A DNA stretch of 16,821 nucleotides, taken from a virus. Its lineage: Duplodnaviria > Heunggongvirae > Uroviricota > Caudoviricetes. Below, piece by piece: positions 1 through 16,821 of the stretch. The stretch is from the IMG/VR virus record IMGVR_UViG_2671180758_000023, one strand, 5' to 3'. The notes under the pieces are model-generated. The model searched no databases. It was not told the origin of the DNA and saw only the letters and a program-made list of their open reading frames with translations. The position numbers and the translations under genes are program-made. Each line of letters opens with the position of its first letter. Positions within the stretch are counted from its first letter, which is position 1.

Positions 1-1461
1 ATGAAAAAATTACTGCGTCTTTTTTTCCCGCTCTCACTGCGGGTACGTTTTCTGTTGGCAACGGCTGCGGTAGTACTGGTGCTTTCGCTTGCCTACGGAA
101 TGGTCGCGCTGATCGGTTATAGCGTCAGTTTCGATAAAACTACGTTTCGGCTGTTACGTGGCGAGAGCAATCTGTTCTATACCCTTGCGAAGTGGGAAAA
201 CAATAAGTTGCATGTCGAGTTACCCGAAAATATCGACAAGCAAAGCCCCACCATGACGCTAATTTATGATGAGAACGGGCAGCTTTTATGGGCGCAACGT
301 GACGTGCCCTGGCTGATGAAGATGATCCAGCCTGACTGGCTGAAATCGAATGGTTTTCATGAAATTGAAGCGGATGTTAACGATACCAGCCTCTTGCTGA
401 GTGGAGATCATTCGATACAGCAACAGTTGCAGGAAGTGCGGGAAGATGATGACGACGCGGAGATGACCCACTCGGTGGCAGTAAACGTCTACCCGGCAAC
501 ATCGCGGATGCCAAAATTAACCATTGTGGTGGTGGATACCATTCCGGTGGAGCTAAAAAGTTCCTATATGGTCTGGAGCTGGTTTATCTATGTGCTCTCA
601 GCCAATCTGCTGTTAGTGATCCCGCTGCTGTGGGTCGCCGCCTGGTGGAGTTTACGCCCCATCGAAGCCCTGGCAAAAGAAGTCCGCGAACTGGAAGAAC
701 ATAACCGCGAATTGCTCAATCCAGCCACAACGCGAGAACTGACCAGTCTGGTACGAAACCTGAACCGATTGTTAAAAAGTGAACGCGAACGTTACGACAA
801 ATACCGTACGACGCTCACCGACCTGACCCATAGTCTGAAAACGCCACTGGCGGTGCTGCAAAGTACGCTGCGTTCTCTGCGTAGTGAAAAGATGAGCGTC
901 AGTGATGCTGAGCCGGTAATGCTGGAGCAAATCAGCCGCATTTCACAGCAAATTGGCTACTACCTGCATCGTGCCAGTATGCGCGGCGGGACATTGCTCA
1001 GCCGCGAGCTGCATCCGGTCGCCCCACTGCTGGACAATCTCACCTCAGCGCTGAACAAAGTGTATCAACGCAAAGGGGTCAATATCTCTCTCGATATTTC
1101 GCCAGAGATCAGCTTTGTCGGTGAGCAGAACGATTTTGTCGAGGTGATGGGCAACGTGCTGGATAATGCCTGTAAATATTGCCTCGAGTTTGTCGAAATT
1201 TCTGCAAGGCAAACCGACGAGCATCTCTATATTGTGGTCGAGGATGATGGCCCCGGTATTCCATTAAGCAAGCGAGAGGTCATTTTCGACCGTGGTCAAC
1301 GGGTTGATACTTTACGCCCTGGGCAAGGTGTAGGGCTGGCGGTAGCCCGCGAAATCACCGAGCAATATGAGGGTAAAATCGTCGCCGGAGAGAGCATGCT
1401 GGGCGGTGCGCGGATGGAGGTGATTTTTGGTCGCCAGCATTCTGCGCCGAAAGATGAATAA
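1..1461 (+). CDS. phoQ: Sensor histidine kinase PhoQ (complete, 486 aa)
   Basis: Full-length ORF starting at window base 1. Two N-terminal TM segments, acidic periplasmic patch (EDDDDAEM), HAMP, H-box ([10 protein letters not shown]) and HATPase motifs ([16 protein letters not shown]). Matches E. coli PhoQ as I recall it. Stop TAA at 1459-1461. Confidence 0.95.
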
Positions 1462-2097: not shown

Positions 2098-2406
2098 TTA
2101 CTTCCTGCGTTTATCCCGCTTTGTATGTCCGTGCTGAATGCCCCGCAGTGGATCTTCTTTTTTCAGGTCGATCCCCATGTCCGTTAGTGTTTTTGTGGCG
2201 GCGGTTCTTATGGCACAAATCAGGTCTCTTTCCGGTTCCCGGGTTATGGTTGCCTTCCGGATACATGCCGTTCGTCGTTCCGTTACATACTGACGCGCTT
2301 CATCACTTGCCGCCTGTTTCAGTAACTCACCCCAGCGATTAGCCGCCCGTCGCCATAAGCCTTTCGCTTCCAGTTCTTCCGCTTTGTCATCATGCACCAT
2401 AAGCAT
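2098..2406 (-). CDS. PerC-family transcriptional activator-like protein (about 100 aa; start at 2406 or 2400)
   Basis: Motif MVHDDKAEELEAKGLWRRAANRWGELL and C-terminal MGID motif, as in PerC/Pch-family proteins. Paralogous to the ORF at 9833-10105. Weak RBS. Confidence 0.55.
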   Translation of the reverse strand: MLMVHDDKAEELEAKGLWRRAANRWGELLKQAASDEARQYVTERRTACIRKATITREPERDLICAIRTAATKTLTDMGIDLKKEDPLRGIQHGHTKRDKRRK

Positions 2407-3202: not shown

Positions 3203-4864
3203 TTACACCCCGCTAAATTCTTCCAGTTTCTGGCGGTGGCTGTCGCTTATATCAAAAGCAAAATCCTCATGCTCTGCCTGGAATGTACCAAACGCCATCA
3301 GCGCCGCTACGCTCGGGTCTATCTTGTTCGGTGATTTTTTCTTGTTCGGCTTGATATTGGCGTTCGCGTCACTCTGCATCACGACGTTACTCATCGACCA
3401 GGACAACACCGGATCGCCACGATGCACAATCACCCTGCGGTTAACAAAAACTTCGAACGATTTCGCCGCCGGACTGAATCTGAGGTAGGTTTGCGGGAAC
3501 GGCTCCACCTCAAAACCAGCCCCCTGTAATTGCGTCCTGAGATGCGTGGCGTTCCACGTATCAAAGCCCACCAGCCTGATATTAAATTTCTCCGCGTCCT
3601 GCATGATGTCATCTCTGATCCGGTCGTAATCAATGCAGTCACCTGGCGTTGTGCGTATCCAGCCCGCTTTAGCCCACTGGCGATAGACAGCGCGGTTTTT
3701 ATTGGCGGGGTTCTGTAGCTGGAACTCCGGCAGATAATGACGGGAAACCAGCATAATGGTTTTACCTACCGGAAAGGCATAGCACACGCTGGAAATATCG
3801 CTTGTGGATGATAAATCCAGCCCCGCGTAACACTCCTGGCCGTGTAAATCTTCCTCCGTGAACGTTCCGGCACACTCAGCCCATGCGCCGTTACCCATCC
3901 ACGGGGTAGTCCCCTGACACCAGATATTAAATCGCTTTGTCATCATCTCCACCCACTGCGACGGAATACCCCGCGCTTTCTGGATGGTTGAGGCCAGTTT
4001 TTCACGATCCACGGAAACATCGATGTTAGGGTTAGCCTTTATCCACATCGCCGGATCATCAACCTCGTTTTCGTCGTCCAGTTCGTAAATCAGTACAAAA
4101 ATTGAATCGTTGACCTCTTCGCCGTCCAGGATCTGGCAGCAATAATCATAGTGCTGCTTACAGGCTGAAACGACGTTACTGCCCGATGTAGTAATGGCAA
4201 ATAACAGCCCTTCGGGACGTGCGCCCATCCCCAGCTCAAGCGCGGAATAAACGCCGTTATCGGGGTGTAGGTGGTATTCGTCCACGATGGAAAGGCTTGG
4301 GTTTGTGCCCTCGATGGTTGCCGCTTTTGCTGCCAGCGGCTTTAACAGGCTGTTGCTTTTCGGGTGCATCACCTTGTGGGCCTGAATATTCACCCGCCTG
4401 CGTAACGGTCGGGATAAAAGGCACATCTGACGCGCATCATCAAAAACGATCCGCGCCTGGTCACGGCTCACCGCTGCGGTGTAAATATCCTGCTGCCCGT
4501 TCTCCATAATCAGAAACCAGTTAGCCAGAATCGCGGCGGTCGTGGATTTCGCATTTTTGCGTGGCACTTCGATAAAGGCGCTCGTGTATTTGCGCCGTCC
4601 GGTGGCCTTAACCTTAAAGCCGAGGATGCACGCAAAGGCGAACTGCTGCCACGGCTCCAGCTCAATGGGTCTGCCACGCATCGGCCCTTTTACGTGCGGA
4701 CACACCCTGGAAAAGGCAATAAACCGCTCCACAACCTCACGATCGAACGTGTAAAGGGGGCTTTCAAGGTCCGAAAAGTACCGTTTAACGGCCTGTTTCA
4801 GCCGTTTACAGGCCGGAATTTTGCCCGTTTTTACGTCTTCTGCGTACTTATTCCAGGCGGTCAA
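3203..4864 (-). CDS. Terminase large subunit (553 aa), probable TTG start overlapping the terS 3' end
   Basis: Typical TerL N-terminus (MTAWNKYAEDVKTGKIP...) and ATPase/nuclease-like length. First codon in frame is TTG (plus-strand CAA at 4862-4864) preceded by AGGA. Overlaps terS by 17 nt. Confidence 0.9.
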   Translation of the reverse strand: MTAWNKYAEDVKTGKIPACKRLKQAVKRYFSDLESPLYTFDREVVERFIAFSRVCPHVKGPMRGRPIELEPWQQFAFACILGFKVKATGRRKYTSAFIEVPRKNAKSTTAAILANWFLIMENGQQDIYTAAVSRDQARIVFDDARQMCLLSRPLRRRVNIQAHKVMHPKSNSLLKPLAAKAATIEGTNPSLSIVDEYHLHPDNGVYSALELGMGARPEGLLFAITTSGSNVVSACKQHYDYCCQILDGEEVNDSIFVLIYELDDENEVDDPAMWIKANPNIDVSVDREKLASTIQKARGIPSQWVEMMTKRFNIWCQGTTPWMGNGAWAECAGTFTEEDLHGQECYAGLDLSSTSDISSVCYAFPVGKTIMLVSRHYLPEFQLQNPANKNRAVYRQWAKAGWIRTTPGDCIDYDRIRDDIMQDAEKFNIRLVGFDTWNATHLRTQLQGAGFEVEPFPQTYLRFSPAAKSFEVFVNRRVIVHRGDPVLSWSMSNVVMQSDANANIKPNKKKSPNKIDPSVAALMAFGTFQAEHEDFAFDISDSHRQKLEEFSGV

Positions 4865-5204
4865 GCTCGTCCTCTTCTTCTGTTTCCGGTGGATTTTTAC
4901 GGCGGCTTATCGGGTCAAAACCGAGCAAAGAGGCCATTTTTATCATCACTCTTTCAGCGTCGGATTTTGCGCTTAATGCGGGGTTTCTGCTCTCTCCGCC
5001 CTGACTGTTAACAATGCTGAACCCGCGCGCCGCAAGGTCTGCGACGGCTTTCCGGTATATCGAGTAATTGACGCAATACAGTTCCAGATTACTCCAGTCG
5101 GCGGGAGTCAGGTCACCCCGTTCCGCAAGCTGCCGCGATTTTTCCCGCCACTGCTTCACGGCGATATCATCCAGGTAGGCGGGGGCTTTCGGTGGTCTTG
5201 CCAT
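4848..5204 (-). CDS. Terminase small subunit, P27 family (118 aa)
   Basis: MARPPKAP...LELYCVNYSIYRKAVADLAARG pattern typical of P27-family TerS. Position immediately 5' of TerL. Weak RBS. Confidence 0.8.
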   Translation of the reverse strand: MARPPKAPAYLDDIAVKQWREKSRQLAERGDLTPADWSNLELYCVNYSIYRKAVADLAARGFSIVNSQGGESRNPALSAKSDAERVMIKMASLLGFDPISRRKNPPETEEEDELDRLE

Positions 5205-5494
5205 GCTTATTTTTTCGCCAGATTATTTTTCAAAAAATTCCCGTGCATAAAAATTTGAGGAGGCGTTCGGTGCCCGGCGGGGTCGGGTTTGTCCTGAAAA
5301 CGCCCCCCCACCCCGTCATACAGCCTCATCAGCGATTGCGGAAACATTCCATAACCTCGCGGTCACGGTCGGTTAATCGCTTCGCTGTGATGCGTTCTGC
5401 GCGTCCTGACGCTTTATCTTTATGCCCTGTTTCCTGTGTCTTCCATGCGTCACGCTGCCTTATAAGTCCACGGATAAGGCGGTTTTGTTCCCGC
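5205..5494. other. HNH-terS intergenic region; candidate cos/packaging site (G-rich tract tgcccggcggggtcggg at about 5271-5287)
   Basis: 290-bp non-coding gap in an otherwise tightly coupled operon, between an HNH endonuclease and a P27-family TerS, which is the arrangement of cos-type HK97-like phages. The G-rich tract is only loosely similar to lambda cosN (GGGCGGCGACCT). Confidence 0.3.
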
Positions 5495-5935
5495 TCATTC
5501 ATCAGCGTCATACATCCAGTTATTGCGGTTAGCGGCCCGTTCTTCCTCCTCACGGAATCCGCCAGCGGCACGCTTGCTTTTTGTTGCCGGATCAAGCCAC
5601 TTCGTTTTCTGGTTATGACACGCCTGGCACAATGGCTGATGGTTCCATTCGGGCCAGAAGAGAACATCATCACCGCCATTAATCGGGATAATGTGATCCA
5701 CCACCACGGCGGGCGTATATATCCCCTTCTCAAGGCATCGCACGCATAACGGGTTTTTACTCAGATACATGGCGCGGTATTTGTCCCACTGTCTGGAGTA
5801 CCCACGCGCGCGGCGGTGTCCTCGTCTGGCATCCTCTGCACGCCATGCCGCCCGCCTGTGCTCCTCACACTTGCCGGACTTCACGCGCCTGTTACAGCCT
5901 GGTTCTGTGCATCGTCTTAATGGTTGCCACGGCAT
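5495..5935 (-). CDS. HNH endonuclease (146 aa), terminase-associated
   Basis: Cys-rich zinc-finger-like N-terminus (CTEPGCNRRVKSGKCEEH, CVRC) and HNH core (DHIIPINGG...NHQPLCQACHNQK). Start overlaps the connector stop (TGATG). Confidence 0.85.
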   Translation of the reverse strand: MPWQPLRRCTEPGCNRRVKSGKCEEHRRAAWRAEDARRGHRRARGYSRQWDKYRAMYLSKNPLCVRCLEKGIYTPAVVVDHIIPINGGDDVLFWPEWNHQPLCQACHNQKTKWLDPATKSKRAAGGFREEEERAANRNNWMYDADE

Positions 5936-6231
5936 CAGTACACCCCCACATCACGGTAAGCCGTCCAGAGTGCACCAATCGTCATGGGTACGCGTGTTTT
6001 TGCGTTATCCGCGACAATCTGGCGATTTTCATACAGGTGAGCGATAAACATCATGCAGCCAATCTTTATGGCTGGCGTGAACGCCAGCCCGTCATCAAAG
6101 CGCCTGCCTATGTGTATCTGGCACGCCTCAAGCGATGCGGCAATGTATCCGCTGATTAACTGGTCTTCCTCGTCGCCATCGATGCGGCAATGGAGTTTCA
6201 CTTCTTCCAGGGTGATAAGTTCTTCTGTCAT
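5935..6231 (-). CDS. Head-tail connector protein, gp6-like (98 aa)
   Basis: MTEELITLEEVKLHCRIDGDEEDQLISGYIAAS...AHLYENRQ matches the gp6-like connector pattern (LxEVKxHLRID...DxLI). ATGA overlap with the upstream gene. Confidence 0.75.
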   Translation of the reverse strand: MTEELITLEEVKLHCRIDGDEEDQLISGYIAASLEACQIHIGRRFDDGLAFTPAIKIGCMMFIAHLYENRQIVADNAKTRVPMTIGALWTAYRDVGVY

Positions 6232-6566
6232 TTTTCCGCGCCCTCACGACAAAGAATTTCAAGGCGTGTCCTGGCGGCATCCGGCAGCGGCTGCCCGATG
6301 ATATTCAGTACACGCCCCGCCAGCGGCCCCGTATTGACCTTTATCCGGCTGGTGGCGTTGATGTCCTTCCTGTAGCGTATCCATATCCTTACCGTTCCAG
6401 TCGCCAGTTCTGCACCCGATGAAATGGCCTCCTTGCTGCTGATCATGTTCACGCTTGCCCAGAGTGTGTGACCGTCCACCCACGTTTCGAGTATTTCGCC
6501 GGTTATATCCCTGGTCTGTTTCAGGGTCTGAATCGTTACCCTGTCACGCAGTCGCCCTATGTTCAT
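6228..6566 (-). CDS. Head closure / head-tail joining protein (112 aa from ATG 6566; ORF extends to 6608)
   Basis: GRLRDRVTIQ...TWVDGHTLWASV...VRIWIRYRKDI...RIKV matches the head-closure family pattern. ATG at 6566 forms an ATGA overlap with the portal stop. An alternative ATG lies at 6608. Confidence 0.7.
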   Translation of the reverse strand: MNIGRLRDRVTIQTLKQTRDITGEILETWVDGHTLWASVNMISSKEAISSGAELATGTVRIWIRYRKDINATSRIKVNTGPLAGRVLNIIGQPLPDAARTRLEILCREGAEK

Positions 6567-7774
6567 TCCGGTTTTTCTCCCTCGCTGATTTTTACTTCCT
6601 GTTTCCATGCCTGGCTGAACTCATCACCACCATCACGCGGGGACAGCCCTTCACGTTCGCGGGCTTCGTTCGGGCACATAACGCCGGATTTGATGCCGCG
6701 TTCATAGGTGGCAAAGCGTTCGCCAGGTGTGGCCCGTAACAGGTCCGCGCTGTCAAACTCCACCTGATACCGGATACCAGGTACAGGTGAGGCCACCAGC
6801 AGGGCGTTTTTTATCTGCTGCTCAAAGTTCGCCAGCCACGGGCGCATCGTCATGGTGAGAAATGCGCGGCTTGCCTCGCTGAAATTGCTGTAGGTGCTGT
6901 TGCTGTATTCCTGCAAAAAAATCGGCGAGACGTTGAACATTCGGGCGATGTCTTCAATGGTGAAGCGACGGGAGGCCAGCCATTCAGCATCCTGATTACT
7001 CATGCCCAGCTGCTGATAGCTCATACCCCCTTCAAGGATGGGCGTTTTTCCGGCGTTTCTGGCCCCTTTGTAGCGTTCCAGTGCGGCTAATGCCTGTTTG
7101 CCCTTCACGCCGTCCAGCCATTCGCCTGACGTGATAACCCCTGCCGCCATCATGCCATCACGCATCACGCTCGCGCCGTGGCGTTGTTGGGCCAGCCCAA
7201 GCCCCAGCGATTCGCGGCAGATGGTTACAGGTGAGCGCCCCATAAAACCGTCATCCGTGGAGTAACGAAGGTGGAGAACCTCCCACGGTAAATAGTTGCG
7301 GGTGTTTCCGGTGTAGGCGTCAGTGATGCAGTAGCGCCAGTTATGCTCACCTGTCTGCTCCACGTTCACCGACTGCGGCGGGTAAGGATGCAAAGCCACC
7401 GGAAAACCATCACGCCCCCACTGAATCACCGCATAAGCATTACCGTTTAACAGGCAGTGGCGGATCATCATTCGCTTAAACTGGTAGGGGGTTTGCCATG
7501 CGTTCGGGCGCTCGTTGAGGATGTGATCGACCGGATGAGAATCAAGCCACTCTCGGGCCTCCTTCCCCTTCTCATTGCGTACCAGGTACAGGTAACACGG
7601 CATGGTAGCCACCGCCTCAGAGATGACCGTGACGGCGTTCATGACGGCGGGCAGTGATTCCGCTGTCCCCGATGATACGTACTCACCCGCCCCCGTGTTC
7701 GATGTGCCGGCCAGCGCCATAAACTCATCAAGCGTCATGCTGCGCTGCTCTTTTTTTCTTCTGAAAGGCCACAT
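6563..7774 (-). CDS. Portal protein, HK97 family (403 aa)
   Basis: Length and sequence pattern typical of HK97-family portals. RBS GGGGGTG 7 nt before ATG 7774. Sits between the protease and head-closure genes. Confidence 0.9.
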   Translation of the reverse strand: MWPFRRKKEQRSMTLDEFMALAGTSNTGAGEYVSSGTAESLPAVMNAVTVISEAVATMPCYLYLVRNEKGKEAREWLDSHPVDHILNERPNAWQTPYQFKRMMIRHCLLNGNAYAVIQWGRDGFPVALHPYPPQSVNVEQTGEHNWRYCITDAYTGNTRNYLPWEVLHLRYSTDDGFMGRSPVTICRESLGLGLAQQRHGASVMRDGMMAAGVITSGEWLDGVKGKQALAALERYKGARNAGKTPILEGGMSYQQLGMSNQDAEWLASRRFTIEDIARMFNVSPIFLQEYSNSTYSNFSEASRAFLTMTMRPWLANFEQQIKNALLVASPVPGIRYQVEFDSADLLRATPGERFATYERGIKSGVMCPNEAREREGLSPRDGGDEFSQAWKQEVKISEGEKPE

Positions 7775-7775
7775 A

Positions 7776-8348
7776 TCACACCCCCGCTAAATCCGCCCAC
7801 CAGCGGCGATTATCCGCACGCGGCATTTTTTCGGGGTGCTGCTCGTACAGGGAGCGGCGGGCCAGCTCCACGCCGGAATCAGGGTAAGCCGGTACGGATG
7901 TAACGGTAATTTCGTATAGTTCCGCCACCAGCACGGTGCGCACGCATGGATCTGTTGTGGTATCCCATACATCCTTACGGGAACGAAAGCCAAAGCTCAT
8001 GCCGGATATATCACCTCGTTTAACCAGTTCGATAACGTCGCGCCCTGTACTGGTATCCGGTGGGGTCAGTTCAAAGCGTAACCCTGTTTCGTCCTCTTCC
8101 AGTTTCAGCGTGCCGGAACGGGTGCGCCCCAGTAACATGCTGTGGTCATGCTCATACAGGCCGCGAACGTCATTACCCGCCGCAAGCCACTCAGTAAACG
8201 CCCCCCGCTGGAATTTTTCGTAAAACTCCCCCCATAGCAGTTCTGAAAGCTTATCCCAGCGAACAACGTAGCCCGTCAGCGTACCGGCTCCGCTGGTAGT
8301 GATTTCCGATGACCGGATTTCCATACTCTTCATAATTTTTTCACCCAT
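7776..8348 (-). CDS. Prohead maturation protease, HK97 family (about 180-190 aa)
   Basis: Conserved pattern GYVVRWDKLSE...GLYEHDH...LGRTRSGTL...ISGMSFGF typical of HK97 prohead protease. Start may be ATG 8348 or the downstream ATG at 8333. Confidence 0.85.
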   Translation of the reverse strand: MGEKIMKSMEIRSSEITTSGAGTLTGYVVRWDKLSELLWGEFYEKFQRGAFTEWLAAGNDVRGLYEHDHSMLLGRTRSGTLKLEEDETGLRFELTPPDTSTGRDVIELVKRGDISGMSFGFRSRKDVWDTTTDPCVRTVLVAELYEITVTSVPAYPDSGVELARRSLYEQHPEKMPRADNRRWWADLAGV

Positions 8349-8377
8349 AAAACACTAAAGGGGCTTTTAAGCCCCTT
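8345..8377 (-). terminator. Intrinsic terminator/attenuator hairpin between the major capsid and protease genes
   Basis: Dyad aaggggctt/aagcccctt (8358-8377) followed in the minus-strand direction by a GTTTTAT U-tract. Placement immediately after a capsid gene is common for stoichiometry control. Confidence 0.45.
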
Positions 8378-8387
8378 CTGTATGCTG

Positions 8388-9545
8388 TTAATCGTCGTCC
8401 TGTGGCAGTTCCAGAATCTTGATCGCGTTCGAATCCACCACGCCACCGCCTAAATATTTCTGCGTGAAAATTTTGATGAAGCCCGGCTCTGTGAGGTTGT
8501 CCGGTCTGGTGCGAACACCTGTTTCGTGATCAACAATGTAGTAACCGCGTTTGAAGTCACCCAGGGCAATAACGTTATCAGGCATAAACTCCAGATATTC
8601 GACCGGAAGGCCCAGCAACGTATCAGGATCACCCGCCTGTAAACGGTCGCGCCAGATGTAATCACCGTTCGCGTTCTTCACCTTCTGAAGTTTTGCCGCC
8701 GTCGTGGAGTTAACCACCCAGACCGCGTTTTTGCGGTATTTTTTACGTAATGCAAATTTCAGGTCGATCAGCGGGTCCGCAGATGTCCACGCCAGAGATT
8801 CGGAAGGTTTAATTACCTGCAACGTACCAAAATCACGCTCTTTGTCGTTCTTCTCTGCACGGGGTACGGATAAAAAACCTTTTGCTTTTTTGTCACCGTC
8901 GCCCACAACCAGATCGCTTTCTTCGGTTTCCGTGAAGGTGTCGCCAATCTCACCCGTCAGCCATGAAAGGATGTCCACATCGGAAAAATCCACGATTTCC
9001 TGTGTGGTGCGCGGGTACGCATAGACCGGATACAGCTTAATGCTCACCTCGTTAATCTGCGGGGTGCTGGTCTGTTCGCGTGTCTTACCCTCTTCACCGT
9101 GGTTAACGGTCGCACCGCCAGCGGAAACAAGCTGCTTAAACTCGTTGCTGCTGATTTTCTTCACGGTACAGATGCGGCGCATGGTGGATTCATCCGTCAG
9201 CATTCGCATGATTTCGGTGTTCAGTTCGGGGATAACGGTATAACCACCATCAGCGGGAACGCCTGTACTTAATGCGCGGGTTTCACCTGTCAGAATGTAG
9301 TTGCGTAGTTCTGCGGGGTCAGTGGTCTGGCTGCTTTTACCTGGCTTGCTGCGCTCTTCGTCTGCAATGGCTTCAAGGCGGGAAATGTCTTTATCGAGGG
9401 ATTCAGCTTTAGCGCGTAATTCGTCAAATTTTGCGCCCTCAGCATCGTTAAGACTGCGGTTTTCTTTTTCCGCGTTCTCCAGCATGTCGCGCATCTGATT
9501 TTTAATGGCGGTTTTCTGCTGGCGTAATTCGATTATTCTCGGCAT
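8388..9545 (-). CDS. Major capsid protein, HK97 fold (385 aa from ATG 9545; ORF track extends to a GTG at 9593)
   Basis: N-terminal coiled-coil delta/scaffold-like domain (IELRQQKTAIKNQMRDMLENAEKENRSL...) followed by a typical HK97 MCP body. AGGA 8 nt before ATG 9545. Confidence 0.9.
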   Translation of the reverse strand: MPRIIELRQQKTAIKNQMRDMLENAEKENRSLNDAEGAKFDELRAKAESLDKDISRLEAIADEERSKPGKSSQTTDPAELRNYILTGETRALSTGVPADGGYTVIPELNTEIMRMLTDESTMRRICTVKKISSNEFKQLVSAGGATVNHGEEGKTREQTSTPQINEVSIKLYPVYAYPRTTQEIVDFSDVDILSWLTGEIGDTFTETEESDLVVGDGDKKAKGFLSVPRAEKNDKERDFGTLQVIKPSESLAWTSADPLIDLKFALRKKYRKNAVWVVNSTTAAKLQKVKNANGDYIWRDRLQAGDPDTLLGLPVEYLEFMPDNVIALGDFKRGYYIVDHETGVRTRPDNLTEPGFIKIFTQKYLGGGVVDSNAIKILELPQDDD

Positions 9546-9634
9546 AAAAAAAGTCCTGGGGTTAAGTAAGGAACTCCAGGACGCGGCAAACACTCAACCG
9601 TTTTTCATAAGGAAATCAGTAATCGCACCGATCG

Positions 9635-9832: not shown

Positions 9833-10105
9833 TTATCTGTCCTGGTAATTTCGCCATATTTCATCGCTTACACCATCTATACCCATTTCAGCATAAGTGC
9901 GATCTACTGCCTTTCTCAGGTCTCCGAAGTTATCCGGCGGCTCCGGTGGCTTCTGTGCCTTCCTGGAACATTCCAGCCGTCGCATCGTAACCTGATGCCG
10001 TTCCTTGTCTGTCTCCACCAGCAGCATGACTTCACCCCATCGCGCCGCCGCCCTCCGGTAAAAGCCTTTCGCCTCGAGTTCTTCCGCTATGCGGTCATGT
10101 ACCAT
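9833..10105 (-). CDS. PerC-family transcriptional activator-like protein (90 aa from ATG 10105; ORF track extends to a GTG at 10225)
   Basis: MVHDRIAEELEAKGFYRRAAARWGEV and C-terminal MGIDGV motif. GAGGGGG RBS 5 nt before ATG 10105. Last gene of the early/replication operon before the terminator. Confidence 0.6.
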   Translation of the reverse strand: MVHDRIAEELEAKGFYRRAAARWGEVMLLVETDKERHQVTMRRLECSRKAQKPPEPPDNFGDLRKAVDRTYAEMGIDGVSDEIWRNYQDR

Positions 10106-10115
10106 CGCCACCCCC

Positions 10116-10526
10116 TCAGAACGGAATACCGTCACCGTAAGGGTCATCGCCTCCCGCTGGTGGCTGATTACCCTGTGTGCCTGTGGTTTTGCGTCTGTTC
10201 CCGCCAGGACGTGCCGCACGGGCACTGATTACGCTGTCTGCAATAACCTGATAACCCTGCCGCGTTTCCCCGTTCTGTCCGGTCCACTGGCTGACCTGCA
10301 TCGTGCCGGATACGCTGGCAACGTCGCCTTTTTGATGTTTAGCCAGGAAGTCGGCCTGCTTACCAAATGCGATGACCGATAGCCATAACGTAGCCTGCCC
10401 ATCCTGCGCCTGACTACATGGCAACGATACCGCCATACGTGCCAGCGTCATTGGTGTGCCCTTGCTGGTCTGTTTTACCTGCGGGTCGTCCACCAGCCGC
10501 CCGTAAGCTGCTATCTGTGCTGTCAT
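10116..10526 (-). CDS. ssb: Single-stranded DNA-binding protein (136 aa)
   Basis: OB-fold-like N-terminal region, Gly/Gln-rich linker and C-terminal acidic tail ending DDPYGDGIPF (SSB DDDIPF-type tip). Strong RBS GGAGAGGTGG. ATGA overlap with the upstream ORF. Confidence 0.8.
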   Translation of the reverse strand: MTAQIAAYGRLVDDPQVKQTSKGTPMTLARMAVSLPCSQAQDGQATLWLSVIAFGKQADFLAKHQKGDVASVSGTMQVSQWTGQNGETRQGYQVIADSVISARAARPGGNRRKTTGTQGNQPPAGGDDPYGDGIPF

Positions 10527-10774
10527 GATTCCACCTCTCCGGTTTTAACGTTGATGGTTGTCACCTGTTCAGCTTCCGCAATCTCCCGCTCTGTCAGCGT
10601 GGCAAAATTTGCCGCCGTCGTGGTCATGAATGCGCTTATCAGTTCGGGATGTGCTTTCGCGTATCCTTCCCCCGCGTGGCGGTCTATCGTTCTGATTGCC
10701 ACCTTTAAGGCGTGCTCTGTCATGTCTAACGCTTTATATTTTGGCTCTGTTCTGTCTCTGTGTTTTTGAGTCAT
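10523..10774 (-). CDS. Hypothetical small protein (83 aa from ATG 10774; ORF track extends to a GTG at 10906)
   Basis: GAGGTGGG RBS before ATG 10774. The ORF portion upstream of 10774 coincides with the iteron array, so it is probably non-coding. Confidence 0.45.
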   Translation of the reverse strand: MTQKHRDRTEPKYKALDMTEHALKVAIRTIDRHAGEGYAKAHPELISAFMTTTAANFATLTEREIAEAEQVTTINVKTGEVES

Positions 10775-10777
10775 TTG

Positions 10778-10985
10778 CCCACCTCTACCCACTTTTTTCG
10801 CCCACTTTTTACGTTTTCCCACTTCGTCCAACGTGGGAAATTTGGGATTTATATCATCTTGTTTCATAGGTATTTTTTTAGTGCCCACTTTTTGGGATAT
10901 ATACACGTGGGAAAGTGGGTAATTTTGTTAAAATTCCGTTAAATCGCCCACCTTTCCCACTTTTAATGCCCACTTTTTACAGTGG
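10778..10985. repeat. Iteron array (about 10 copies of CCCACTT(TT), both orientations) flanking an AT-rich core; candidate replication origin
   Basis: Copies at 10778, 10788, 10801, 10818, 10884, 10947, 10956 and 10969, with inverted copies at 10833-10838 and 10907-10919. AT-rich spacer at 10838-10883. Immediately 3' of the replication ATPase gene, as in PICI/SaPI origins. Confidence 0.55.
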
Positions 10986-12377
10986 TCCTACATCATCACC
11001 GTCAATGTAGATCACGTCGTCTTTTTCCAGTTTGGCTAACCATCGTTTAAGGTGTTTTGTGTCATACCCCAGCTTTTTCATATCGTCACGTAACAGCGGG
11101 ATCGTGCACTTGTCGCCGTGCTGTGTGCGTGAACGTATGCATCCCCATAGCGCGGTATGGTTTTCCGTCTTGTTCCCTGCCTCCTCGATGCGCTCCAGTT
11201 CAACAGGAGGGCGCGGATCATCCACCACCACCAGCGACGTGATTAATTCACCGTCAGCGTCGGTAAAAAGCTCCACCACGCGTAAGTCATATGCGGCTTC
11301 TTTGAGTTCCTCCGCGTCCTTCATTTTGGTGCATGAGATAACCAGCGCTTCGCTTCCTGCGTCCTCCCTGCGTATCCGGTATTCAGCATCCAGCGAAGCA
11401 CGAAATGCACTGGAACCGCGCGCGCCTTTCGTCTCATCCTTGCCGGAATGGTGAACCACCAGCACCGTGGCCCCTGTGCGTCGTTTCAGTTCGTCACAAC
11501 CACGGATAAACGCCCCCATATCACGGGAATCATTTTCATCATTCCCACCAAAGCAACGCGCCAGCGTATCCAGAATAATCATGCGTACAGGTTTACCCGT
11601 TTCCCGCTCCACCTGACGGGCAGCGATAACCATTTCATCAACATCAAGCGGGGCAGCCGGAAAGATGGGGCGGTTTACCAGATACAGATTTTTCACCTGC
11701 TCATCGTGCACAACCTCCCAGGCTTTTACACGACGCGGAACACCTATACCGCCTTCACCAACCACATAGAGAACCGCACCATGTGCAACCCTGCGGCCTC
11801 CCCACTGGCGACCAGTGGCAACATGGCACGCCCACGATCCGGCAAGGAATGATTTATAGGACCCGCTAGCCCCGTATATGCTGCATAGCGATACCGCCGG
11901 AATAATCCCCTTAACCACGTAATCCAGTTGCGTGTCGTATCCGGTAGATCCAACGCTCATCGGTAGCGTGGTTTTTCGCTGGTGGTTTTTTTCTTCCGCC
12001 GGCTCTTTCCCGCGCACCCGTTCCAGGTATTCGCGCCAGTTCTCCCGCATATGGCTGTGCATCCCTTCGGGGTAATAATTCGCATCAGTTACACCCGCCG
12101 CCGCCAGCTTGTGCGCAATGGCATTAATATTTGATGGCCTGATGTGGCCTGCCTTGTACAGCCGGACACAATAGCGCCCCTCGTCGATGATTCTCAGGTC
12201 TGCCAGTTCATCCAGTTGATCATCAGCCAGCACAACGGGAGGCACATTATCGCCAGCCAGTCGCCCGTCCTGTTCCTGCCACTGTTTCGCATGTGCCCAG
12301 GCATCACTACCCGCAAAAATAATGACTTCGGTCATCTTGTCGTAAGGCTGTTTTTTTAAGTTCGGTGCGCTTTTCAT
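10977..12377 (-). CDS. Replication protein, RecA-fold ATPase (RepA/AAA_25-like helicase, pri-rep analogue), 466 aa
   Basis: Walker A-like YGASGSYKS, Walker B-like VRMIILDTLARCF, and VLVVHHSGKD motif typical of RepA-like helicase ATPases. Unassigned N-terminal domain and a C-terminal winged-helix-like tail. A canonical primase domain is not evident by eye. Confidence 0.8.
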   Translation of the reverse strand: MKSAPNLKKQPYDKMTEVIIFAGSDAWAHAKQWQEQDGRLAGDNVPPVVLADDQLDELADLRIIDEGRYCVRLYKAGHIRPSNINAIAHKLAAAGVTDANYYPEGMHSHMRENWREYLERVRGKEPAEEKNHQRKTTLPMSVGSTGYDTQLDYVVKGIIPAVSLCSIYGASGSYKSFLAGSWACHVATGRQWGGRRVAHGAVLYVVGEGGIGVPRRVKAWEVVHDEQVKNLYLVNRPIFPAAPLDVDEMVIAARQVERETGKPVRMIILDTLARCFGGNDENDSRDMGAFIRGCDELKRRTGATVLVVHHSGKDETKGARGSSAFRASLDAEYRIRREDAGSEALVISCTKMKDAEELKEAAYDLRVVELFTDADGELITSLVVVDDPRPPVELERIEEAGNKTENHTALWGCIRSRTQHGDKCTIPLLRDDMKKLGYDTKHLKRWLAKLEKDDVIYIDGDDVGPL

Positions 12378-12673
12378 TTCTTGCCCCTGAATCCGTTAAT
12401 CATGGTTTTCAGCTTCTGGATGTTTGCCCGTGCCCTGGCGTTGCTGGTGGGCACGTTATGCGGCGCGGTCTGTACCAGAGAAAAATCACGCCGGAACTGA
12501 TAAACAGGCATCACGCAATCATATTCGTAACCTTCACGGCGGTAAGTTACGCACCGTCCCGCCACGCCCTTAATCATTACCGTGCCGCCGTACTGGTCGC
12601 GGTAAATATCACCGCGCGTAAATTTAGGGTGAGTGTTGCCACTGGCAGTTAAGCCAGAATATTTAAGTTTCAT
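12374..12673 (-). CDS. Hypothetical protein (99 aa)
   Basis: ATG with GGAGA RBS. ATGA overlap with the replication gene start. No family recognised. Confidence 0.5.
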   Translation of the reverse strand: MKLKYSGLTASGNTHPKFTRGDIYRDQYGGTVMIKGVAGRCVTYRREGYEYDCVMPVYQFRRDFSLVQTAPHNVPTSNARARANIQKLKTMINGFRGKK

Positions 12674-13369: not shown

Positions 13370-13571
13370 AAAGCATCCCCTGAATATTCGTGTTAATCAT
13401 TCCGGCACGTTTTGTGATTTCCTGTAATGATTCCCTTGTGGCGACAATTGCTTCATCTGGTAAGTGGTAATTACACACCACGCGACCTTTATCCACATTG
13501 ACCAGTAGCTGCCCTGTGAATTTCTCACGAAACTGAATGCGGTTAAGGTCAGTAAGTGACAGATTAATCAT
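13359..13571 (-). CDS. Hypothetical protein (70 aa)
   Basis: ORF in the coupled operon; overlaps the upstream gene by 8 nt. No family recognised. Confidence 0.5.
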   Translation of the reverse strand: MINLSLTDLNRIQFREKFTGQLLVNVDKGRVVCNYHLPDEAIVATRESLQEITKRAGMINTNIQGMLYAQ

Positions 13572-13767
13572 GGCGCACCTCCTGACGAATACGGGCAGCG
13601 AATACCATCACGCAGCCAGCCGGAGATTGCTGGCGTGCTTCCTGTTCGCTGGTGGCCTCAATGGTAATCACGCGCGGTTGTGCCGTGCTCAGGGCGATAA
13701 AACGCCAGATGTATTTATTCAGGTTGTGCGAGTCCCGCCCTTGCGGGTGTGTGGTATTATTTCTCAT
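13564..13767 (-). CDS. Small protein (67 aa) resembling Icd-like (host cell division inhibitor-like) proteins of P4-family elements
   Basis: GAGG RBS 5 nt before ATG 13767. Motifs YIWRF, IEATSEQEAR and FAARIRQEV recall P4-family Icd-like proteins (from memory, not searched). First gene after the divergent promoter region. Confidence 0.45.
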   Translation of the reverse strand: MRNNTTHPQGRDSHNLNKYIWRFIALSTAQPRVITIEATSEQEARQQSPAGCVMVFAARIRQEVRHD

Positions 13768-13802
13768 AGCTACCTCGATACTCTCGTTATCGTTGGTGGT
13801 TA

Positions 13803-13837
13803 GAAGCCCCGTTACTGCTCCAACAGTGCGGGGCTTC
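13803..13837 (-). ncRNA. Leader stem-loop (gaagccccg ... cggggcttc, 9-bp stem, 17-nt loop) in the 5' UTR of the early operon
   Basis: Dyad read directly. Lies between the predicted minus-strand promoter and the Icd-like start codon. Not followed by a U-run. Confidence 0.3.
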
Positions 13838-13874
13838 GTCGTTTCAATTGCTGAATTGCATGTATCAGCACTTG

Positions 13875-13929
13875 TGGTATTCACATTACATTTAGGTGAA
13901 TACCATTTCAAGTCTTTTTTGGTATTCAC
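13875..13929. promoter_or_regulatory. Operator array in the divergent switch region: three copies of TGGTATTCAC (two form a 10-11-10 palindrome), overlapping back-to-back promoters
   Basis: Copies at 13875-13884, 13896-13905 (inverted) and 13920-13929. Minus-strand promoter candidate TTGAAA (13906-13911), 17-bp spacer, TAATGT (13883-13888) overlaps copies 1 and 2. Plus-strand -10 candidate TATTAC (13935-13940) lies just after copy 3. Confidence 0.45.
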
Positions 13930-13972
13930 TTTTGTATTACACTGCATCCCGTTATTAATGGGAGGTGCAAAC

Positions 13973-14278
13973 ATGTCCAGGAGTTCTGTTAACAATAAGT
14001 CACAGCAACTGAATGCCAGATTTCCACATGAAGTAGTGAGTGGCATTGAGGCATCCCTACAGCCAGGGGAAACTAAAGCGAATTTTATAGTTACGGCTGT
14101 ACGCGGTGAGATCGCCCGGCGCCAGGCAGAAGGAAGTGGAGAAAATCCCCTGGTTTCTTCGCTCGATGCACTGGCGCAGGTGGAAAAACTCGGAATCAAA
14201 GCCGCCGAGGAGATCGGGCAGCTCGTCACTGTCGCACGTGAAGAACTCCAGCGCCGCAAGACCAAAGAACCAGAGTAA
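13973..14278 (+). CDS. Ribbon-helix-helix-like DNA-binding protein (101 aa); candidate repressor/regulator of the switch
   Basis: Strong RBS GGGAGGTG 5 nt before ATG 13973. N-terminal beta-strand-helix-helix pattern (LNARFPHEVVSGIEASL...ANFIVTAVRGEIARRQ). Divergent from the early operon. Followed by a clear intrinsic terminator. Confidence 0.6.
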   Translation: MSRSSVNNKSQQLNARFPHEVVSGIEASLQPGETKANFIVTAVRGEIARRQAEGSGENPLVSSLDALAQVEKLGIKAAEEIGQLVTVAREELQRRKTKEPE

Positions 14279-14335
14279 TCACCATCAGCGCCGTGGTGTA
14301 AGGTATTACGGCGCATTGCTATGCAGGACAACACA

Positions 14336-14509
14336 ATGACCGATAAAGAATTGACCAAAACATTATCACCGGCACGGAAAAGACGGCGCAGAAAGATAGA
14401 GCATGAATCAGAAAGATTCGCGCCATGTGCTTTTGCCCTTGAGCAATTCCTTAAAGAGTACAGGGAAAAGCGCTCATTGCAGGTATGGCAACGAACTGAA
14501 CCAGACTGA
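14336..14509 (+). CDS. Hypothetical small basic protein (57 aa)
   Basis: AGGA 8 nt before ATG 14336. Basic patch RKRRRRK. Same transcription unit as the RHH gene, ending before the terminator at 14589. Confidence 0.4.
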   Translation: MTDKELTKTLSPARKRRRRKIEHESERFAPCAFALEQFLKEYREKRSLQVWQRTEPD

Positions 14510-14588
14510 TTGCATTGCCCACCAGCCGCAAATGTGGCATTGTTGGCAATGCTCATGCGTTGGGGATAACGTGTAGCTTGTGTCGAGG

Positions 14589-14617
14589 GGCCACCGTAGC
14601 GGGTGGCCTTTGTTTTG
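14589..14617 (+). terminator. Rho-independent terminator (ggccacc-gtagcg-ggtggcc followed by TTTGTTTTG)
   Basis: Perfect 7-bp GC-rich stem, 6-nt loop and U-run, about 80 nt after the stop of the plus-strand operon. Confidence 0.7.
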
Positions 14618-14985
14618 CCCGTTATTCGGCAATTGTGGCGCTTCTCCACATGGTTGATATAATCCCACTGCTCAGATTCATTTTTTGCGCAGTAGGTTAA
14701 TTGTTCACAAAGGCGCTCCGGCAACGGGGCGCTTTTTGTTTTTATTAGTTTGTAGAAACCTGACTCAGAGATAATGCTCATATTCTGATTGCCGTCAGGG
14801 GTGTAAGTTAAATTTACTCCCTTTTTATCATCAAACATCTGCAACGCTCTGGCGTTAACAATATTGGTTTCACTCCCGCCAGTAAGGCCGGAAATAACCG
14901 GAATAATTTCGGCAAAATTTTGCAGATTCTGTTTTTCAGGACGAACGAAGCCCCGCCCTTGTTCGGGAGAATATCCAGTATTCAT
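14618..14985 (-). pseudogene. Bro-N-like antirepressor N-terminal domain, probably a gene remnant (no in-frame stop before running antisense through the plus-strand operon)
   Basis: Residues DDKKGVNLTYTPDGNQNMSIISESGFYKLIKTKSAPLPERL align to the Bro-N pattern (DEDEKGV...GG.Q...IISE.GLY.LI..S..P.A..F). Weak RBS. The frame stays open for 473 codons to 13564, but the middle section is Ser/Cys/Arg-rich antisense of a well-supported plus-strand gene. Confidence 0.3.
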
Positions 14986-15037: not shown

Positions 15038-15226
15038 TTAGTGAACTGCCTCGCAGCTGTCCTTCCATGCCAGAACTTCGGATAAAGACCAGCCAACGGA
15101 ACGACCGCCCAGCTTACGCCGTGATGGGAATTGTCCGGCTTTTTCCAGGCGGTACCGACATGAGCGGCTCAGGCCTGTAAGTTGCTGACATTCTTTTTCA
15201 CGTATAAAGCGATCTGTGCTTAACAC
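15038..15226 (-). CDS. alpA: AlpA-family transcriptional regulator / excisionase-like protein (about 62 aa, GTG start)
   Basis: Motif QLTGLSRSCRYRLEKAGQFPSRRKLGGRSVGWSLSEVLAWK matches the AlpA winged-helix pattern. AAGGGGG RBS 4 nt before GTG at 15226. Confidence 0.8.
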   Translation of the reverse strand: MLSTDRFIREKECQQLTGLSRSCRYRLEKAGQFPSRRKLGGRSVGWSLSEVLAWKDSCEAVH

Positions 15227-15591: not shown

Positions 15592-16821
15592 TTATATTTC
15601 TCTGGCTATTGGCAATGTGGTTACGTTTTCATGTGTTCCCGCCAGTATCCCTAACCGCTCCGTCCACATATCCAGCGCGTCACGTTTCGCATCCAGATAA
15701 CGGGAATGGTTATAGACTCGTTGCATCCCTGGCATCTGATGACCTGTAAGCTGCTCCACGACGTGAGGATCCACGCCTAAATCGTTCAGCATCGTTGTAA
15801 AGGTGCGCCGGATGTCATGCAGTGACCAGTGAGGGTGTTTTAGCCTCCTGTGCGCTAATCTGCCGTACTGCGACACGCTTGTTTCCTGTTTCAATTCCCC
15901 CAGCAATAAGCCCGTGTGCCTGTTCTGCTCCACCAGCTGCGTGACGAACGGCAGTATTGCTTCCGGTATGGGCCGGAATATTGCCACCTTCGTTTTGCTG
16001 TGTTCTTTCGGCACGGTCCAGAGCATTTCGGTAAAATCCCACTCGCTGATCTCCGATAACCTCAGTTCTACCGTCCGGCATCCGAAAACAATCAGGAGGC
16101 GGATTAGTGCGACGTAGTAAGGGGAAAATATTTTTTTGTCCAGTGCCTGCAATAATTCGCCAAGTTCTTTGGTGCTTAAGACACGCTCGCTTATATCCGG
16201 TTTTTTCCCAACGTCCGCCACACTCATATCATCAAGAACGTTGCTGATTGCATAGCGCCGCCTCCGGCAGAACTTAAGCGCCTGTTTGCACGTCTGTAGC
16301 AAGAATCCGGCAGTAACAGGCGTTCGCTTTGCCACCTGGTCAAAACAGGCCAGCCAGTGCCGTAGCTCGCATTTATCCAGCGGCATAGCACCAATGTGCT
16401 GTATTACGTGATTATTAAGGCGCTTTTTCAGGGCGGCATAATCCACGCGGTTTTCCTTTACGTAAGACTCAAGCCAGTAGGTAAGCGCATCGCCAACCGT
16501 TACGGGCTTTAACGCTTTCTGTACGGTGTAATTCATCTCATGACGTGGATTTTTCCCCTCAGCAAGCCAAGCGCGACACTGTGCCGCTTTTTCCCTGGCA
16601 GCTTTCAGACTCAGATCAGGATAATTTCCCAGCTTAATCCGTTCCGGTCGTGCTCCCCTTCCCGTTCCGGCCCTGTAGGTGAAATACCAGGTTAAAAGGC
16701 CGCTGGTTGAATGCCTGACGCTCAGGTTTCCACCGTCATTAAGAAAAGCTGTTTTTTGGGCGGGTGTGCCGTTGATTTTCCTCAGCTGTGTATCGCTCAG
16801 TTTGTTAAGTGCTCTGCTCAT
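15592..16821 (-). CDS. Tyrosine integrase, P4-type (409 aa); start codon at the window edge
   Basis: N-terminal arm-binding-like domain (LSDTQLRKINGTPAQKTAFLNDGGNLSVRHSTSGLLTWYFTYR) and catalytic motifs (HDIRRTF, C-terminal Y in GMQRVYNHSRY). ATG at 16819-16821. Confidence 0.9.
   Translation of the reverse strand: MSRALNKLSDTQLRKINGTPAQKTAFLNDGGNLSVRHSTSGLLTWYFTYRAGTGRGARPERIKLGNYPDLSLKAAREKAAQCRAWLAEGKNPRHEMNYTVQKALKPVTVGDALTYWLESYVKENRVDYAALKKRLNNHVIQHIGAMPLDKCELRHWLACFDQVAKRTPVTAGFLLQTCKQALKFCRRRRYAISNVLDDMSVADVGKKPDISERVLSTKELGELLQALDKKIFSPYYVALIRLLIVFGCRTVELRLSEISEWDFTEMLWTVPKEHSKTKVAIFRPIPEAILPFVTQLVEQNRHTGLLLGELKQETSVSQYGRLAHRRLKHPHWSLHDIRRTFTTMLNDLGVDPHVVEQLTGHQMPGMQRVYNHSRYLDAKRDALDMWTERLGILAGTHENVTTLPIAREI

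Follow-up and report, generated by a model that had tools for sequence, protein, structure and literature searches.

A candidate Rep-cognate replication origin with short iterons in a capsid-forming PICI of Escherichia coli

Where does a capsid-forming PICI of E. coli begin its replication, and which protein recognises that site? PICI origins directly follow the 3' end of the initiator gene (Fillol-Salom et al. 2018, PMC6092414), and it is at this position that a dense array of short repeats was noticed in the DNA analysed here, a stretch of 16,821 nucleotides referred to below as the window. The question raised by this locus is whether the intergenic gap behind rep is the origin that matches the Rep protein encoded next to it.

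Setting and layout of the repeat array

The window contains an E. coli phage satellite in which int, alpA, rep, ssb and perC are combined with a capsid/terminase module adjoining phoQ (Table 1), with all island genes on the minus strand. Given that both the gene set and the insertion site match those of capsid-forming PICIs, we assigned the element to this group; the presence of int, alpA and rep, the small size and the specific att site are those of a PICI. The phoQ junction is the roxA-phoQ site, which is used by EcCICFT073 and EcCIEDL933. In addition to perC, a second PerC-family gene (2098-2406, minus strand) is located at the far island end between terL and phoQ. Neither Pfam nor PADLOC gave a match for the 473-aa ORF (13564-14985, minus strand), which stands where related islands have Icd-like and small genes. 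Its last 90 residues correspond to a PHROG annotated as phage 'transcriptional repressor' (E = 7e-54), and near its N-terminus a short stretch resembles the anti-repressor Ant.

Table 1 Positions of island genes, Rep domains and elements of the candidate origin in the window
Feature	Position	Strand	Remark
int	15592-16821	-	
alpA	15038-15226	-	
Several small genes and an unusual 473-aa gene	13564-14985 and after	-	
DUF4222 gene	12374-12673	-	
rep, 466 aa, Pfam AAA_25, 'helicase RepA family'	10977-12377	-	Stop codon 10977-10979
rep codons 1-125, N-terminal domain common to other PICI Rep types	12003-12377	-	
RepA-like AAA_25 helicase core, Rep residues 148-315			
rep codons 400-466, C-terminal winged-helix DNA-binding domain	10980-11180	-	Predicted
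Winged-helix elements H405-419, H426-435, H443-452, beta-hairpin 456-465			Predicted
rep codons 439-452 (DTKHLKRWLAKLEK), N-cap and recognition helix	11022-11063	-	Predicted
Intergenic gap, 202 bp, candidate origin, between rep and 83-aa gene	10775-10976	-	
Rep-proximal cluster, three direct copies AAAGTGGGC, AAAGTGGGA, AAGGTGGGC	10944-10976	-	Positions conserved in alignment
Cores of rep-proximal cluster	10969-10973, 10956-10960, 10947-10951	rep strand	
First AT-rich spacer, 27 bp, about 81% AT	10920-10946		Counted from sequence
Two adjacent iterons in opposite orientation, ACGTGGGAAAGTGGG	10905-10919	+	
TGTATA motif	10900-10905	-	Between inverted iterons and central iteron
Single central iteron AAAAGTGGGC on rep strand	10884-10888	-	Borders AT-rich core
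AT-rich core, 46 bp, 76% AT	10838-10883		Proposed DNA-unwinding/melting site
Rep-distal cluster, one inverted copy (core 10833-10837) and four direct copies	10778-10837	-	
Direct cores of rep-distal cluster	10818-10822, 10801-10805, 10788-10792, 10778-10782	-	
83-aa gene, conserved, PHROG 1231	10523-10774	-	Directly after gap; ATG 10774-10772
ssb, island-encoded single-stranded DNA-binding protein, replication accessory gene	10116-10526	-	
perC	9833-10225	-	
Capsid, prohead protease, portal, head completion, connector, HNH, TerS, TerL	3203-9593	-	
phoQ	1-1461	+	

The gap contains seven exact copies of CCCACTT within 10788-10975, six on the plus and one on the minus strand, together with four one-base variants: CCCACCT at 10778 and 10947, and CCCACGT on the minus strand at 10831-10837 and 10905-10911. 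The CCCAC core is thus present 11 times, in eight cases on the plus strand, where it reads GTGGG on the rep strand, and in three cases inverted on the minus strand. A second repeat, ACGTGGGAAA, occurs twice, at 10831-10840 and 10905-10914. Read along the rep strand, the order is three direct iterons, an AT-rich spacer, two inverted iterons, TGTATA, one direct iteron, the AT-rich core, one inverted iteron and four direct iterons, spaced by 9-17 bp without strict helical phasing. The first iteron begins 2 nt past the rep stop codon, and the last (10778-10782) overlaps the Shine-Dalgarno region of the 83-aa gene. The original prediction, which described about ten CCCACTT-type copies in both orientations, two copies of a second repeat and a 45-bp AT-rich core, therefore agrees closely with the sequence. 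It placed these elements at 10778-10985, an interval that does hold the array but whose end runs 9 nt into rep, and compared their position with that of PICI-type origins after pri-rep; the position directly 3' of a helicase-type rep stands, whereas a separate pri gene is absent from the window element.

Of the 39 GTGGG/CCCAC pentamers in the window, 11 fall in the gap, compared with 0.34 expected per 202 bp from the rest of the window (Poisson P ~1e-13). Any other 202-bp stretch of the window holds at most three cores, and mononucleotide shuffles of the gap yielded a mean of 0.17 and a maximum of three. The gap is also richer in AT than the window as a whole (60% versus 49%). Folding of the gap as single-stranded DNA gave a z-score of -3.0, with the AT-rich core remaining unpaired; this score is explained by the inverted iterons and is therefore uninformative about function.

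No IHF consensus and no GATC were found in the gap, and the search for a DnaA box there gave nothing convincing, with a single two-mismatch match that overlaps an iteron. The absence of a DnaA box and of an IHF consensus fits a self-loading initiator, yet it removes one classical hallmark of an origin. Elsewhere in the window, two perfect DnaA-box nonamers (TTATCCACA) are located inside terL (4039-4047) and near a 70-aa gene (13489-13497). Over the window as a whole, matches with up to two mismatches number 64, above all 200 shuffles (mean 44). A scan of the whole window with Rfam matched no RNA family.

The exact allele of the candidate origin was found in 30 of 5,426 complete E. coli genomes and the Rep family in 1,757 genomes. 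This allele has never been annotated, with the matching RefSeq regions being listed as 'none' or 'hypothetical protein'. In E. coli 2013C-4991, a rep-ori segment 99.8% identical to that of the window lies within an island inserted in tqsA, which indicates that replication modules are exchanged between islands at different attachment sites.

Covariation of the repeats with the Rep C-terminal domain

The ATPase core of Rep matched RSF1010 RepA (PDB 1G8Y) over residues 150-321 with an E-value of 0.006. The AlphaFold model of full-length Rep was poor (pTM 0.43) apart from a confident stretch over the last 66 residues, the domain arrangement in it is uncertain, and a fold search with it returned only RecA/RadA/DnaB-like proteins as meaningful matches, all to the core. 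Given the quality of this model, we modelled the C-terminal domain on its own. Residues 387-466 gave a pLDDT of about 90 over three helices and a beta-hairpin, and Foldseek matched the model to MepR, MexR, DtxR/IdeR, Fur, LexA, the DnaD N-terminal domain and the MCM C-terminal winged helix with probabilities of 0.9-0.99, TM-scores of 0.55-0.66 and weak E-values, the latter being expected for a 70-residue domain. A Pfam search up to E = 10 yielded no match for the N-terminal 130 or the C-terminal 81 residues of Rep or for the 83-aa protein. A search of a phage collection returned only distant matches to the helicase core (up to 55% identity), so that no characterised phage origin was transferable.

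The N-terminal domain of about 125 residues is common to three E. coli PICI Rep types, namely the AAA_25 Rep of the window, a 584-aa primase-family protein (EcCICFT073) and a 710-aa protein (Sakai Sp7), which are 62-82% identical over this domain and unalignable beyond it. It corresponds to 12003-12377 in the window, 6242-6616 in L094 and 4601-4975 in L082, and gave a confident beta-alpha repeat model; part of a 'DNA primase' PHROG matched the domain weakly.

Scanning one genome per species, we obtained 80 Enterobacterales loci in which the Rep relative shows 52-72% identity, and eight more loci were added. Short repeats are present at the equivalent position, directly 3' of rep, in about 90 related loci, and nearly all of the 80 Enterobacterales loci have 3-10 copies of a short motif within 260 bp past the rep stop codon. 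The iteron motif is AAAGTGAGGAA in Xenorhabdus, AAGTGCGGCA in Kosakonia, Enterobacter, Kluyvera and Citrobacter, AAGTGGGGA in Pantoea dispersa, and AAGTGGGGGA in Pectobacterium, Serratia and Morganella. We aligned the Rep C-termini on an invariant R/K-W-L-x-K-L motif and compared the tripeptide preceding it with the iteron hexamer. At the hexamer level, the two fit in 78 of the 80 loci with at least three copies. KNF accompanies GTGAGG (22 of 23 loci), KSF or KGF accompanies GTGCGG (9 of 9), and KKF accompanies GTGGGG followed by G (32 of 33). KHF accompanies GTGGGG followed by A in seven of nine loci, the exceptions being two RKHF loci (L039 and L042) with G instead of A, and KHL, the tripeptide of the window Rep, accompanies GTGGG followed by a base other than G, GTGGG(H), in all three loci. 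The tripeptide is located just before the predicted recognition helix of the C-terminal winged helix. In the modelled structure, the covarying residues 440-444 lie at the start of helix 3, and 454, 457 and 464 lie in the wing; helix 3 is the usual recognition helix of winged-helix domains.

Two helicase backbones, 66-69% identical to each other, are found in E. coli and Salmonella, each with KHL, KNF and KHF C-termini. In all six combinations of this natural two-by-three design, the iteron tracks the C-terminal type and not the backbone, so that shared ancestry alone is insufficient to account for the covariation. The Rep of EcCI042 differs from that of the window at 11 of 466 residues, nine of which fall within 439-464, and its gap of 200 bp aligns position for position with the window gap, with GTGAGG replacing GTGGG. 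More generally, an alignment of seven origins shows iterons at conserved positions with cores that change together, and the TGTATA motif (alignment columns T72-A77) is invariant in all seven whatever the iteron type. Neither the DUF4222 protein nor the 83-aa protein tracks the iteron type. The latter is 89% identical in Sakai Sp7, where the iterons (TAACCCGCA) are unrelated, and it follows the origin whichever of the three Rep types an island encodes, which indicates that it is not the iteron reader. On this comparative evidence each Rep allele has its own iteron sequence. The covariation proves that the Rep C-terminal domain and the repeats are co-inherited and co-adapted, and not that binding initiates replication.

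These comparisons also bear on the idea that the repeats arose by chance or reflect the low complexity of an AT-rich intergenic spacer. Such a region, rich in T-tracts, does inflate some k-mer counts, and CCCACTT taken alone was only moderately significant in a whole-window shuffle test, with eight copies being reached in 3 of 200 shuffles. The extreme local enrichment, the repeat positions held in common by the aligned origins with their cores changing together, and the near-universal agreement between protein and DNA refute this explanation, to which we attach a negligible probability.

Several relatives deserve separate mention. A metagenomic locus (L089, 2917-3327) has a 411-bp gap that resembles two tandem origin-like arrays, with mixed GTGAGG, GTGAGT and GTGGGG cores and a repeated 'TGTATATA'-type centre, and may be a duplicated or hybrid origin. 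In two Xenorhabdus loci (L027 and L081), the Rep C-terminus appears frameshifted, with in-frame stops, and seven GTGAGG iterons are kept downstream; the frameshift may reflect decay or sequencing error. In Klebsiella, a cf-PICI whose Rep is of the KSF type and whose iterons read GTGCGGCA was deposited as a 16,971-bp circular 'plasmid' (L095, CP018459.1), which fits an excised, possibly replicating form. This Klebsiella pneumoniae record contains an integrase, a Rep homologue, capsid and terminase genes, and a gene annotated as tail tape measure protein.

Proposed function and alternative roles

Taken with the PICI gene context and the flanking of an AT-rich core by iterons, the tracking of the Rep C-terminal domain by the repeat sequence supports the origin proposed in the original prediction. 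We consider it highly probable that the gap at 10775-10976 is a Rep-cognate origin of the PICI type, at which the winged helix physically binds the iterons, the AT-rich core melts and self-loading of the RepA-like helicase follows; we infer each of these steps, and with them Rep-dependent, autonomous replication, from these comparisons. In the proposed course of events, induction by a helper phage would lead to AlpA-driven expression and excision, and Rep would be produced as a protein composed of the N-terminal domain, a RepA-like hexameric helicase core and the C-terminal winged helix. The winged helix would bind 8-bp iterons, (A)AAGTGGG(H), arranged in two groups on either side of AT-rich DNA, and the bound Rep would melt the AT-rich core and then load itself as the replicative helicase, with the island SSB and the host primase and polymerase completing the replisome. 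The gap would then mark a candidate cis-acting site needed for amplification of the satellite after induction.

The repeats might instead be Rep-binding operators with a mainly transcriptional role, which control or insulate the downstream operon of the 83-aa gene, ssb, perC and the capsid genes. The overlap of the last iteron with the ribosome-binding region of the 83-aa gene would suit such a role, as would the invariant TGTATA between iterons, which is -10-like, and the fact that the winged-helix fold matches mostly transcription factors. The TGTATA motif might also be a host-factor site or the edge of an unwinding element. Consensus scans revealed neither a sigma-70 promoter nor an intrinsic terminator in 10400-11300, a result that neither supports nor excludes transcriptional function. 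The array lies 3' of rep and not at the rep promoter, and the equivalent region of EcCICFT073 is required for plasmid maintenance (PMC6092414). Moreover, 11 sites in two orientations around AT-rich DNA, read by a domain fused to a hexameric helicase, constitute the architecture of a self-loading initiator (PMC9371898). A mainly regulatory function is thus improbable and much less likely than an origin, yet it is compatible with one, the two roles not being exclusive.

The array might also be a packaging signal, consisting of cos or pac repeats for the island TerS, HNH and TerL, or it might bind another protein of the island or helper phage. Recognition of short-repeat arrays is common among terminase small subunits, and TerS, HNH and TerL are all encoded by the island itself. 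The repeats, however, track the Rep C-terminal domain and not the packaging module: the same rep-ori type is present in islands with different capsid modules and in EcCI042, which has no annotated terminase genes (PLSDB/RefSeq annotation). The array is also about 5.5 kb from terS, and classical E. coli PICIs of this kind have cos sites elsewhere (PMC6092414). We therefore regard a packaging signal or a site for such another protein as very unlikely, and return to the gap as a candidate origin.

The layout of this candidate origin has already been published for SaPIs and E. coli PICIs (PMC6092414, PMC9371898). The gap represents a new allele within a type of origin already described, and the current picture of PICI biology is unchanged by it. 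Only the correspondence between residues and bases and the modular make-up of the three E. coli PICI Rep types may be new. A joint reading of these data, to which we give about an even chance, combines a compact, portable code for origin specificity, set by the N-terminal end of the recognition helix (residues 440-444), exchange of cassettes, and a third superfamily of self-loading helicases. Within such a code, the partner of the base at iteron position 4 would be His442 for G, Asn for A, and Ser or Gly for C, and Phe or Leu at 443 together with neighbouring residues would set the bases further 3'. The pairing of His with G and of Asn with A agrees with common side-chain-to-base preferences. 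If this reading is true, E. coli satellites diversify replicon specificity by swapping a cassette of ~300 bp, which comprises rep codons ~436-466 and the origin, between otherwise unrelated helicase backbones, and such swapping could avert cross-talk or incompatibility between co-resident islands. The RecA-fold, RepA-like helicase would likewise bring to three the helicase superfamilies that serve satellites as self-loading initiators. A map from tripeptide to hexamer could predict which co-resident islands cross-replicate, and could guide the design of orthogonal satellite replicons as well as tests of DNA reading by winged-helix initiators.

Comparison with known replicons and islands

Classical oriV regions of iteron plasmids of the Rep_3 type (pPS10, RK2, F and R6K) contain direct iterons of 17-22 bp in helical phase, with DnaA boxes and/or an IHF site adjoining them, and their Rep is a WH1-WH2 protein and not a helicase. 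The window iterons, in contrast, are about 8 bp long, occur in both orientations at a spacing of 9-17 bp and are not adjoined by DnaA boxes or an IHF site in the gap, and the window Rep gave no Rep_3 match, having an AAA_25 helicase core instead. In satellite phage P4, which is discussed in PMC6092414, the alpha protein combines a helicase and a C-terminal origin-binding domain that reads octamer repeats in one polypeptide, and a second repeat cluster (crr) several kb away is required. The window element resembles P4 in being a satellite replicon with a helicase fused to a predicted C-terminal origin-binding domain, but the helicase and primase domains of alpha are of another family, and no distant second CCCACTT cluster is present in the 16.8-kb window, where the only other copy stands alone at 190-196. 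The 20-bp iterons of IncQ plasmids are bound by a separate initiator, RepC, and RepB' is responsible for priming at ssi sites. Although the ATPase core of the window Rep is homologous to RepA of RSF1010, the window helicase carries its own predicted DNA-binding domain and its iterons are about 8 bp; RepC and RepB homologues were not found in the window, and neither was any further replication protein except SSB.

SaPIs offer a parallel in origin logic. Their Reps are self-loading helicases that melt AT-rich DNA and load themselves (Qiao et al. 2022, PMC9371898), and their origins, which directly follow rep, are built of 6-12 iterons of five or six nucleotides that surround a central AT-rich region in opposed orientations on its two sides and are recognised by the C-terminal winged helix of a hexameric helicase-initiator (PMC9371898). 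The gap shares with the PICI-type layout of SaPI and EcCI elements its position immediately 3' of the initiator gene and its 6-12 iterons of 5-8 bp, arranged in two sets with opposed copies flanking an AT-rich region. According to the predicted fold, the helicase Rep likewise ends in a winged-helix iteron-binding domain, but its superfamily is unlike that of SaPI Reps, which have SF3 or MCM-type AAA+ cores as opposed to a RecA-fold, RepA/DnaB-like AAA_25 core. The two systems thus share the same logic without sequence homology.

For the E. coli islands, a functional origin test has been published for EcCICFT073, of which a pri-rep-ori plasmid was maintained only with both rep and ori (PMC6092414). 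As in the window, the gap of EcCICFT073 directly follows rep and precedes a small gene, 71% identical to its window homologue, and then ssb and perC. Its AT-rich DNA likewise has a set of short iterons on each side, its Rep is 62% identical to that of the window over the first 125 residues, and both islands are inserted next to phoQ. The tested module is nevertheless non-homologous to that of the window beyond these 125 Rep residues, given that its Rep is a 584-aa 'DNA primase family' protein whose helicase and DNA-binding parts are unalignable to the AAA_25 Rep, and its iterons are CTGTCTACC-like. EcCIEDL933 (Sakai Sp7), the prototype capsid-forming PICI (bioRxiv 10.1101/2022.09.08.507074), is the same type of island, with the same insertion site and gene order in the packaging module, and its origin gap precedes the same 83-aa gene and ssb. 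It differs in its 710-aa Rep, of which only the N-terminal 125 residues are common (67% identity), and in its 370-bp gap with a different iteron sequence. EcCI042, a classical PICI in tqsA published in 2018 (PMC6092414 supplement), differs from the window element in having a lambda-type capsid and decoration-protein pair and not a full capsid/terminase module, but its Rep is identical at 455 of 466 residues, and its gap has the same iteron positions, the same orientations and the same AT-rich stretches.
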